The position numbers and the translations under genes are program-made. A stretch of 64,000 nt of DNA, from contig JAJEIY010000016.1 of assembly GCA_022828085.1 (NCBI GenBank), positions 19,765 to 83,764 of the forward strand, given 5' to 3'. How positions within the stretch are numbered: the first letter of the stretch is position 1; every line of letters starts with the position of its first letter. The notes beneath the pieces are model-generated. The model ran no database searches, was not told the origin of the DNA, and was given only the letters and a program-made list of their open reading frames with translations. This document shows positions 21,119 through 22,446 of this stretch, one piece after another. Source of the stretch: Acidobacteriota bacterium. GTDB taxonomy: Bacteria > Acidobacteriota > Vicinamibacteria > Marinacidobacterales > Marinacidobacteraceae.

Positions 21119-22329
21119 CGGTCGATCTCTCCGAGGACGATGTCCAGGCTGCCGATGATGGCGATGATGTCGGCGATCATCTCGCCGCGGGTGATCTCGT
21201 GGAACAGCCCCATCGCCACGAAACAGGGGGAGCGGCCCTTCACCCGGTAAGGAATGGGCTTCTTGTTCTCGGCGACGATATAGAAGGCCAGTTCGCCCCG
21301 CGGAGCCTCGCTGCGGCAGTAGGCCTCGCCGGCCAGCGGCCGGACGAACCGCGGCACGTTCTCGTGGACGTCACCCTCCGCGGGCAGGCGGTCGAGCGCC
21401 TGGCGGACGATCTTGACGCTCTCGTACATCTCGCGGACCCGCACGAAGTACCGGTCCCAGCAGGAGCCGACGGGACCGTGGGGACTGGTTGCCACGACCA
21501 CGTCGAAGTCGTAGTTCTCGTAGCCCAGGTAGGGGTCGTCCCGCCGCAGGTCCCAGTCGATCCCGGAGCCCCGGAGGTTCGGGCCGGAGAGCGCGTAGTC
21601 CTTCGCCATCTCCGGGGTGATGATCCCGATGTCGGCGGTCCGGCGGATGAAGATCTTGTTGTGGCTGAGGAGCTTGTCGACCTCGTCCAGCACCGGTACG
21701 AACTCGTCGAGGAAGCGCCGGCACTTGTCGGTCCAGCCCTCGGGAAGATCGTGGGAGACGCCGCCGACCCAGTTGTAGTTGTAGAGCAGGCGGGCGCCGC
21801 AGAGCCACTCGAAGAGATCGAGGATCCGCTCGCGTTGCTGGAAGCAGAGCAGGAACGGCGTGAAGGCGCCGATGTCCATCCCGTAGGTGCCCATCGCGAG
21901 CAGGTGGCTGGCGATCCGCTGCAGTTCGGCGGTGATCACGCGGATGCCCGCGACCCGCTCGCCCACCCCGATGCCGAGCAGCTTCTCGACGGTGAGCGCG
22001 TAGGCGAGGCTGTTCCCCATCGAGCCGACGTAGTCCATCCGGTCGGTGAACGGGATGACGCCCTGGTAGTCGATGTTCTCGGCGTGCTTTTCGAAGTTCC
22101 GGTGCAGGTAGCCGATGTGCGGCCGGGCGTCCTTGACGATCTCCCCGTCGGTCTTGAGCTCCACCCGCAGCACTCCGTGGGTCGAGGGGTGCTGCGGCCC
22201 CATGTTGAGGATCATCTCGTCCTCTTCGAGCTCCTCCGGGGAGAAGGCGTAGGAGTTGTCGGGGGGCAGTTCCTCGTCGTAGAGGGTGACCAGCGGGGCC
22301 CCGTCGACGGGAGAACGATGCTCGGCCAT
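21115..22329 (-). CDS. nuoD: NADH-quinone oxidoreductase subunit D
   Basis: LNMGPQHPSTHGVLRV ... SLDIVLGEIDR at the C-terminus. No hydrogenase-type CxxC Ni-binding motifs. The ATG at 22329 directly abuts the TGA of a 38-codon upstream ORF. Confidence 0.92.
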   Translation of the reverse strand: MAEHRSPVDGAPLVTLYDEELPPDNSYAFSPEELEEDEMILNMGPQHPSTHGVLRVELKTDGEIVKDARPHIGYLHRNFEKHAENIDYQGVIPFTDRMDYVGSMGNSLAYALTVEKLLGIGVGERVAGIRVITAELQRIASHLLAMGTYGMDIGAFTPFLLCFQQRERILDLFEWLCGARLLYNYNWVGGVSHDLPEGWTDKCRRFLDEFVPVLDEVDKLLSHNKIFIRRTADIGIITPEMAKDYALSGPNLRGSGIDWDLRRDDPYLGYENYDFDVVVATSPHGPVGSCWDRYFVRVREMYESVKIVRQALDRLPAEGDVHENVPRFVRPLAGEAYCRSEAPRGELAFYIVAENKKPIPYRVKGRSPCFVAMGLFHEITRGEMIADIIAIIGSLDIVLGEIDR

Positions 22330-22446
22330 TCAGGAGACCGCCTCGTGAGGCTCGCCGCCTCCGGCGGCGATGCCGGTCTGGAGACCGGCGTTCCAAGCCG
22401 GCGGTGCCAGCGGGGCCCCGTCGACGGGAGAACGTTGCTCGGCCAT
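22330..22446 (-). other. 38-codon upstream ORF formed by a duplicated nuoD 5' end plus an inserted repeat element
   Basis: The ATG at 22446 lies 16 nt after the nuoC stop, behind AGCAGGGA. The product is MAEQRSPVDGAPL (versus nuoD MAEHRSPVDGAPL) followed by repeat-encoded [25 protein letters not shown]. Its TGA (22332-22330) immediately precedes the nuoD ATG. Confidence 0.4.
22354..22401 (+). repeat. REP/MITE-like element copy located inside the nuo operon
   Basis: Hairpin GCCGCC-TCC-GGCGGC, then GATGCC, hairpin GCCGGTC-TGGA-GACCGGC, and GTTCCAAGCCGG. Confidence 0.9.

Follow-up and report, generated by a model that had tools for sequence, protein, structure and literature searches.

The nuoC-nuoD junction

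The stretch of DNA analysed here (the window; 64 kb, G+C content 69.6%) comes from a sponge-associated lineage of Vicinamibacteria (Acidobacteriota). Its minus strand carries a nuo operon in the order nuoA-B-C-D-H-I-J-K..., in which a hairpin-rich repeat unit lies between nuoC and nuoD, flanked by two copies of the nuoD start codon and of its first 13-15 codons. An earlier inspection of the letters alone (the sequence-only reading) had described a 39-bp direct duplication identical at 38 of 39 positions, a full repeat-family member between its copies, an added unit of 117 bp, and an old nuoD start, 16 nucleotides (nt) past the nuoC stop, that opens a 38-codon open reading frame (ORF) ending in TGAATG. 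All of these features are present. The 39-mer, CAGCGGGGCCCCGTCGACGGGAGAACG[A/T]TGCTCGGCCAT, occurs at 22291-22329 and 22408-22446 (identity 38/39); once a left-hand extra matching base is counted, the repeat measures 40 nt with 39 identities (repeat family D15, 98%), and in a second lineage, L004, the duplication reaches 47 nt (L numbers denote the contigs and loci compared). Between the copies lie 77-78 nt with GTTCCAAGCC at 22390-22399 and a pair of hairpins that recur in other copies in the window; both family alignment and scans identify this stretch as a full member of the family. The spacing from ATG to ATG is 117 nt. The flanking-repeat score of the site is 37 (null mean 8, null maximum 14), and no third copy of the 40-mer was found in the window at up to 3 mismatches, shuffled sequences likewise giving an expectation of 0. 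The features of the junction are the following:

22463-23014, minus strand: nuoC (NADH-quinone oxidoreductase subunit C), stop codon TGA at 22463-22465; matches NCBIfam NuoC_fam at 3e-35
22447-22462, minus strand: intercistronic spacer GGTAGCAGGGATCCGG, 16 nt, the ancestral ribosome-binding region of nuoD; in L012, L013 and L014, which have the empty site, it stands right before the nuoD ATG
22407-22446, minus strand: upstream 40-mer copy (ATGGCCGAGCAACG...CCGCTGG) with the ancestral nuoD start codon, at the position of the empty-site start codon; starts the relay ORF
22417-22428, no strand assigned: 12-nt perfect palindrome CCCGTCGACGGG within the upstream copy, read from the sequence; pairs with the downstream copy in the predicted RNA fold
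22330-22406, minus strand: inserted repeat unit, 77 nt, found by family alignment and scans and missing from empty sites
22400-22406, minus strand: 5' extension CACCGCC of the insert
22390-22399, minus strand: head GGCTTGGAAC of the insert
22372-22389, minus strand: hairpin 1 of the insert, GCCGGTCTCCAGACCGGC
22369-22371, minus strand: trinucleotide ATC between the hairpins
22354-22368, minus strand: hairpin 2 of the insert, GCCGCCGGAGGCGGC
22330-22353, minus strand: tail of the insert, GAGCCTCACGAGGCGGTCTCCTGA
22330-22446, minus strand: 38-codon relay ORF, whose TGA (22330-22332) abuts the nuoD ATG at 22329 (TGAATG)
22290-22329, minus strand: downstream 40-mer copy, the present nuoD start codon and first 13 codons, with ATGGCC at +70 from the head
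22300-22311, no strand assigned: 12-nt palindrome CCCGTCGACGGG within the downstream copy
21115-22329, minus strand: nuoD, 404 amino acids (aa), matching NCBIfam NuoD models with E values of 1e-127 to 1e-138; its 3' end overlaps nuoH by 4 nt

The nuoC gene call of the identical contig L001 (2316-2867) maps onto the window coordinates of nuoC, and 11 contigs carry a gene for the identical 404-aa NuoD. The relay ORF is annotated as a gene in L003 and L005, and L006 has a 44-aa version of it; its peptide has no match to any NCBIfam family at E<=0.001. The NCBIfam model of the NuoC/D fusion matches both NuoC and NuoD, below its cut-off.

Recurrence of the junction in independent assemblies

The junction of the window recurs in four long contigs from independent studies (L001, L002, L003 and L005), the upstream copy of L001 beginning with ATGACC. 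In the second lineage (L004, GCA_026706125.1, together with L006), the 47-nt duplication has 4 mismatches, the insert is 18 nt longer and the upstream ORF ends in TAATG. A metagenome-assembled genome (MAG) with a 3.8-Mb chromosome in a single contig (L011, OY821641.1) carries the duplication with 5 mismatches, so that, over three lineages, 1, 4 and 5 positions distinguish the two copies. Altogether the filled junction, identical or diverged, is present with two copies in at least six independent assemblies from different studies as well as in the single-contig chromosome. The duplication and the insert are thus confirmed as real: non-identical copies and diverged versions in different species show that the structure is not an artefact of assembly.

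A false duplication induced by the repeat could be suspected because the Logan short-read contigs L007, L008 and L009 all start, at position 1, with the element's head, CGGCTTGGAAC; short-read assembly is thus disturbed by the repeat. Such breaks in de Bruijn assemblies are, however, what a genomic repeat should cause, and an artefact would have to explain the recurrence of the junction, the substitutions between the copies, the longer insert of L004 and the decayed derivatives of the same insert in other species. Its probability is practically negligible.

Empty sites, decayed alleles and exchange between lineages

An insertion with flanking duplication, as the sequence-only reading had proposed, predicts an uninterrupted arrangement in relatives. 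Precisely this is seen in L012, L013 (a complete chromosome) and L014, where the nuoC TGA is followed by the same 16-nt spacer and then by ATGGCCGAGCA..., with no insert and with 99% identity in NuoD. As the ATG of the empty sites has the same 16-nt distance from the nuoC stop, the ancestral nuoD start is marked by the upstream copy. Of the two observations that the sequence-only reading had named as refuting it, neither was encountered: reads with one copy only, or, across the relatives' junctions compared, the same arrangement free of any repeat element. Farther relatives lack the insert altogether, and their NuoD N-terminus is different and hypervariable.

Four further junctions are derivatives of the same insert. 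L045 has a 30-codon upstream ORF with the same tail and TGA; in L010 the upstream ORF has 22 codons and the stop TAG, in L017 it has 26 codons and ends in TGATG, and in L016 it is fused in frame to nuoD with no stop, which would add 25 aa to the protein. The L010, L016 and L017 alleles (the 'b' alleles) have only ATGAGCG ahead of the unit, at the ancestral start position. Codon 4 reads CAA in all upstream copies, as in empty-site L012, and CAT in most downstream copies, as in the 'b' alleles.

The distribution of these alleles does not follow the genes around them. Trees of the flanking genes place the empty sites among filled ones, inside a clade whose DNA diverges by at most about 5%. L016 and L017 are 92-100% identical to L018 (mostly at least 96%) in 75-nt windows up to both junction edges, and their junction allele differs; L010 combines flanks of the core clade with a 'b'-type junction like that of L016. 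Different junctions amid near-identical flanks mean that a short segment was swapped between lineages, and junction alleles have thus been exchanged by short-tract recombination. Precise loss of the insert through the direct repeat is also plausible and fits the nesting of empty among filled sites. The allelic series, from empty through long-duplication insertion and decayed forms to in-frame fusion, shows how a tightly coupled operon can take up a hairpin-rich selfish repeat with downstream expression presumably kept.

Some further variation occurs at the same place. In the clade (L010-L027), NuoD begins with ~15 hypervariable residues, of a 'type A' MAE(Q/H)RSP(V/F)DGAP versus a 'type B' MD(K/Q)PGSTGFDGAP. 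The upstream start of L045, ATGGACAAG, may be a relic of a 'type B' nuoD start, as in L015, or a decayed 'type A' copy. L020 has an internal duplication in the N-terminal region of NuoD, L019 an unrelated 18-codon upstream ORF that ends in ATGA, and L027 an in-frame upstream ATG.

The relay ORF and translation of nuoD

In the window and in L001, L004, L011, L045, L010 and L017, the ORF from the upstream ATG ends right at the nuoD ATG, at a distance of 0 or -1 nt, in the forms TGAATG, TAGATG, TAATG and TGATG. The distances from ATG to ATG are 117, 117, 93 and 69 nt, all multiples of three, as well as 134 nt with TAATG; the stop codon differs (TGA, TAG, TAA) at a constant place. The ORF and its stop are thereby conserved across alleles: all seven length-distinct alleles, of 69 to 134 nt, are compatible with coupling, by an ORF end that abuts or overlaps the nuoD ATG or by in-frame fusion. 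The upstream ATG is invariant in 8 of 8 alleles, including that of L001, where the following base has changed. When the interior is shuffled and the frame randomised, compatibility of a single allele has a chance probability of P = 0.22-0.56, and the joint value for the length-distinct alleles is ~1e-3 to 6e-3, which is somewhat optimistic as the alleles share ancestry. The peptide itself is not conserved between alleles, which fits selection on the act of translation and not on its product.

The sequence-only reading had considered it probable that nuoD expression depends on termination-reinitiation, or on a start site inside the hairpin-rich insert. The retention of a compatible stop or frame in all length-distinct alleles supports termination-reinitiation coupling, on which nuoD may depend. 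In the predicted RNA fold, the paired palindromes CCCGTCGACGGG of both copies enclose the insert and the nuoD AUG, and the upstream AUG lies outside this domain in a weak local hairpin; for the inserted unit the predicted fold, of -40.9 kcal/mol, comprises hairpins 1 and 2 and the closing stem ACCGCC...GGCGGT. No promoter-like or terminator-like signals were found in the insert.

The relay could operate in the following manner: Ribosomes initiate at the upstream ATG, which keeps the ancestral initiation region 16 nt past the nuoC stop. While translating they may cross the hairpin-rich insert and melt the paired-palindrome domain, to terminate at the stop that abuts the nuoD ATG; nuoD would then be translated by reinitiation. 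Selection may have retained this arrangement while the sequence and length of the insert drifted. Coupling of this kind fits the operon, in which other junctions are also tightly coupled, nuoB/nuoC and nuoD/nuoH by 4-nt overlaps. The relay frame, of which only start, openness and stop position are conserved, offers a ready test system for reinitiation across structured RNA and is a case of short ORFs born from mobile DNA. Gene callers handle the 38-codon ORF inconsistently, and programs that pick start codons could take the wrong nuoD ATG.

A different insert lies elsewhere in the operon: in L001 (5364-5579), also in L008, and in L015 (8364-8568), a hairpin-rich insert of 216 nt separates nuoH from nuoI, where the window (near 19960-19966) and L002 have a 7-nt spacer instead. 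It holds a second copy of the nuoI start, GATGAAGCG, which opens a 28-codon ORF with a TAA 4 nt before the nuoI ATG; further upstream, a 14-codon ORF ends in ATGA on the ATG of this second copy. The insert may be a second relay arrangement.

The repeat family

The family numbers about 12 units in the window, all of them intergenic except for the nuoC/nuoD copy. A unit consists of the head GGCTTGGAAC, of which variants exist, a hairpin of 8 bp, the trinucleotide AYC, a second, copy-specific hairpin and a tail of ~24 nt. The stem of hairpin 1 co-varies (GCCGGTC/GACCGGC, GCCGACC/GGTCGGC, GCGGGTC/GACCCGC). The units stand singly, as inverted doublets or in tandem arrays, and their neighbours are ordinary housekeeping genes; of the ten ORFs that adjoin copies, each is a housekeeping gene or lacks a Pfam match. 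The other copies in the window are:

2199-2249, plus strand: head 2199-2208; forms an inverted doublet with the head at 2429-2438; no flanking duplication
2358-2438, minus strand: head 2429-2438, ATGGCGC at +74, followed by a degenerate unit with head 2344-2353
4775-4852, plus strand: head GCCTAGGAGC, tail GAAACTCCC, ATGGCGC at +71; inverted partner of the head at 4991-5000
4934-5000, minus strand: head GGCCCGGAGC at 4991-5000, tail GAAACTCCC, ATGGCGC at +60
38036-38171, plus strand: two tandem units with heads at 38036 and 38121 and the boundary motif ATGGCGCC between them
42973-43027, minus strand: head 43008-43017, between the convergent genes for NamZ and DUF2891; closing stem GCGACGTAA/TTACGTCGC
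55397-55491, minus strand: head 55481-55490, followed by a degenerate unit with head 55397-55406
63553-63612, plus strand: head 63562-63571

No transposase was found among the ORFs neighbouring the window copies. Conserved terminal inverted repeats are likewise missing from the family, as the closing stems are copy-specific (ACCGCC...GGCGGT at nuoD versus GCGACGTAA...TTACGTCGC at 43017). A known RNA family was considered and rejected, since no Rfam model reaches its gathering score anywhere in the window and the site itself gives nothing but sub-threshold noise, and a literature search on the motif returned unrelated primer sequences only. The family is undescribed.

Outside the window, a metagenome scan with the pattern GGCTTGGAACGCCG-N9-10-CGGC, which proved too loose, returned 120 loci, nearly all of them chance coding matches with no hairpin; only L129, L206, L187 and L112, perhaps also L108 and L132, are family-like. 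The module of head and hairpin 1 (GGCTTGGAAC GCCGGTCTTCAGACCGGC) with a second hairpin is present in unrelated contigs of much lower G+C, L129 and L206 (G+C 0.51-0.54), L187 and L112, and L187 has three tandem units at 12335-12590. The module is therefore not confined to sponge Vicinamibacteria.

Additional repeats were observed around the nuo genes. A composite insert of ~450 nt upstream of nuoA in L017 (2945-3437) contains two family units and is missing from L016, L018 and L015; a 12-nt direct repeat, CCGGGATGGCGC, lies on both sides of the first of these units (head 3072). Another miniature element, which has terminal inverted repeats of ~23 nt, AACAGCCTGTGGCGAAACCCCCG ... CGGGGGTTTCGCCACAGGCTGTT, occurs at 11690-11900 in L011 and at ~11810-11960 in L015; the L011 copy sits in the hairpin 1 loop of a GGCTTGGAAC-family unit, right after the last nuo gene. 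In the distal nuo region of the window (16180-16230), a degenerate family-like GGCTCGGGAC with two hairpins overlaps long ORFs on both strands.

The rest of the window adds two observations. The nuo genes at 17113-24046 (minus strand) run nuoA-B-C-D-H-I-J-K-L, with nuoE, nuoF and nuoG not between nuoD and nuoH, which makes this a complex-I-like set that lacks the NADH-oxidising module at this locus. A long ORF (26885-28351) contains, at 27041-27262, a 111-nt unit in two tandem copies that are 90% identical.

The boundary motif

Of 18 strictly defined units, 10 have the motif ATGGC[CG][CG] (ATGGCSS) between +60 and +74 from the head, where 0.33 would be expected (P about 1e-13); six of the motif-bearing units are independent of the nuoC/D site. 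The nuoD ATGGCC, at +70 from the head of the insert, occupies this family position, which explains why the right-hand copy starts exactly at the start codon. In the tandem arrays, and in the unit with the 12-nt direct repeat, it stands ahead of the head as well; in two units it is at -11. In a genome of 70% G+C, ATGGCSS is a typical Met-Ala start codon context. General targeting of start codons is rejected: ATGGCGC at 4846, 4940 and 2364 does not mark gene starts, and the motif belongs to the repeat or its target and not to the genes. The family with its unusual boundary motif is what the present finding points to in the Vicinamibacteria.

Origin of the long duplication

For eight of the nine family copies of the window, flank-repeat scores are at the null level, and only the nuoD copy is above chance. 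A long flanking duplication as a family-wide footprint is rejected for these eight copies. The 40-47-nt duplication is probably not the target-site duplication of the element itself, and we infer that it was an exceptional, probably recombinational event. The left junction reads GCTGGCACCGCC and resembles a chimera of the target GCTGGTCACCCT and the family 5' flank GATGGCGCCGCC, which suggests a homology-guided join. That the tail might be a diverged nuoC end with ribosome-binding region was rejected (alignment score 4, null mean 5.5), so that the duplication does not reach upstream of the ATG.

The chimera-like left junction, the CAA/CAT pattern at codon 4 and the swapping of alleles favour a history in two steps. 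A canonical insertion may have placed a unit at the nuoD start codon with a short duplication of this codon, the state that the 'b' alleles would show. A microhomology-mediated join, as a single secondary event, could then have extended the upstream copy to 40-47 nt, either by a template switch or by a homology-anchored illegitimate join between element-bearing and empty alleles. Two loci of relatives at which insertion footprints might be read give none: the L017 insert upstream of nuoA has no clean edges relative to its relatives, so no filled/empty footprint is readable, and the region past the last nuo gene shows a replacement and not an insertion.

Alternative explanations

Overall it is fairly probable that a family unit inserted at the nuoD start, that the relay frame couples nuoC to nuoD and that the long duplication arose by a secondary event. 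Several points weigh against this account. Translation of the relay ORF, and the dependence of nuoD on it, are inferred from sequence comparison. In DNA of 70% G+C, ORFs of fixed length stay open by chance with P = 0.62-0.85, and the statistical case thus rests on the retention of frame and stop in alleles of shared ancestry. In L011 a good GGAGG stands 7 nt ahead of the nuoD ATG, and in the window and L045 a GAGG stands 11 nt ahead of it; these Shine-Dalgarno-like sequences make independent initiation of nuoD possible. The 'b' alleles could be 41-nt deletion derivatives of the long-duplication ('a') allele, and the long duplication would then have come first. No clean filled-versus-empty pair that would show the family's normal insertion footprint directly was obtained for another family copy from the relatives' loci compared; no donor copy with hairpin 2 GCCGCCGGAGGCGGC and tail GAGCCTCACGAGGCGGTCTCC was found in the window or in the relatives' loci. 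ATGGCSS could be a target preference, a duplication or the element's own end. Easy openness, the Shine-Dalgarno-like sequences and the non-independence of the alleles all favour the alternative that the upstream ORF is a neutral relic and that nuoD initiates on its own from the insert tail. This alternative is unlikely but has to be taken seriously: alleles with differing indel histories keep a compatible frame, with TGA, TAG or TAA at the same position and the joint probability given above, no recognisable Shine-Dalgarno sequence precedes the nuoD ATG in L004, L010, L016 and L017, the upstream ATG is invariant, and the nuoD AUG is predicted to lie within a strongly folded domain. The ORF might instead encode an N-terminal extension of NuoD, for example if ribosomes read through the in-frame TGA, or it might be an old leader peptide that has its own function. 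The window ORF is indeed in frame with nuoD over 117 nt, the L016 fusion would amount to a 25-aa extension, and NuoC and NuoD are fused in some bacteria, the NCBIfam fusion model matching here below its cut-off. With a peptide that is not conserved and has no NCBIfam match, with L004 and L017 in another frame than nuoD and with empty-site relatives that manage with no such ORF, this explanation is very improbable.

As for the duplication, its 40-47 nt could be a genuine target-site duplication, produced by widely staggered, variable cuts of a transposase that would mobilise the family. Direct repeats of the insertion sequences (IS) IS1549 and IS1634 range from 8 to 514 bp depending on the copy (PMC2266710), the duplication at nuoD flanks the unit exactly, with the right copy starting at the boundary motif, and the duplicated target holds the 12-nt palindrome. 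The 12-nt direct repeat around the L017 unit, and the possible origin of the 'b' alleles by deletion, would also agree with it. Against it stand the eight other window copies with no flanking repeat above chance, the lack of conserved terminal inverted repeats, the failure to find a transposase adjoining any copy and the chimera-like left junction; a target-site duplication is unlikely. More speculative still, and rather doubtful, is the idea that the GGCTTGGAAC family is a site-specific miniature mobile element that homes to ATGGCSS-like sites, with integration duplications that are variable and sometimes very long, and that its insertions at starts regularly create relay frames that are then selected. 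If true, start-codon duplication would be a general route by which operons of sponge symbionts absorb repeat insertions.

Comparison with known systems

The closest parallels are repetitive extragenic palindromes (REP sequences), their hairpin-forming doublets (REPINs) and bacterial interspersed mosaic elements (BIMEs). Like these, the units are short G+C-rich hairpins in many copies, extragenic and often located by stop codons or between convergent genes, with a conserved motif beside a stem that shows compensating changes. Inverted doublets occur at 2199(+)/2438(-) and 4775(+)/5000(-), next to tandem arrays and singletons. A flanking duplication above chance is missing from 8 of 9 window copies, in contrast to the 40 nt of the nuoD copy; this would agree with transposition of the IS200/IS605 type, to which that by REP-associated tyrosine transposases (RAYTs) is similar and which produces no large target duplication (PMC2817692), and with the sequence-only view that REP-type elements should not duplicate their target in this way. 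REP palindromes carry a conserved GTAG or CGTC tetranucleotide tag at one end (PMC3733652), whereas all copies here have the stem-side tag GGCTTGGAAC, with GAAC by the stem and GTTC on the opposite strand. Further differences are a longer unit with two hairpins, a tail and the ATGGCSS boundary motif, and the location of the nuoD copy within an operon, on a start codon and with a 40-47-nt duplication. Genomes with such REPs hold a cognate RAYT (Y1 transposase) gene, as a rule between REPs; none was seen in the window and the 13-kb loci. By analogy, the element would behave as an extragenic hairpin repeat of the REP/REPIN type, although it does not have the sequence tag of one.

Miniature inverted-repeat transposable elements, non-autonomous derivatives of DDE insertion sequences, have conserved terminal inverted repeats, which the family lacks, and a fixed short target duplication; here 10 of 18 units have ATGGCSS as their 3' boundary and two have it at -11, and a single unit has a 12-nt flanking repeat. 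With IS1634 and IS1549, whose long direct repeats vary per copy by no known mechanism (PMC2266710), the nuoD copy shares a duplication far beyond the usual 2-14 bp that is seen in one copy and not in others. Those elements, however, are 1.5-2 kb long and encode a DDE transposase, whereas the unit here is a non-coding 77 nt with no transposase ORF and no conserved terminal inverted repeats. Their direct repeats differ widely in length from copy to copy; here one copy has 40-47 nt, one has 12 nt and the others none detectable, with a single long duplication known.

Termination-reinitiation in bacterial operons is known from stop codons that overlap or abut the next start, as in ATGA or TGATG. 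The relay stop, which abuts or overlaps the nuoD start, conforms to this, as do the 4-nt overlaps of nearby nuo genes; what differs is the upstream frame, a relic of the nuoD start itself that is fused to a mobile repeat and would relay nuoC to nuoD. REPs near stop codons reportedly lower the output of the upstream gene through ribosome stalling (attributed to Liang, Rudd and Deutscher 2015). Similarly, the hairpin at nuoD lies a few nt from a stop and would meet translating ribosomes, but here the hairpins are inside a putatively translated relay frame, and downstream initiation would be at issue. Rickettsia palindromic elements are inserted in frame, and REPs can lie within ORFs or supply stop codons (PMC3733652; PMC3184786). 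At nuoD, too, a repeat is tolerated at a coding boundary and provides both codons of an ORF and its stop, and in L016 it is read in frame; the difference is that the nuoD start is duplicated and the protein unchanged, with the repeat-encoded peptide as a by-product. The finding overturns no principle.

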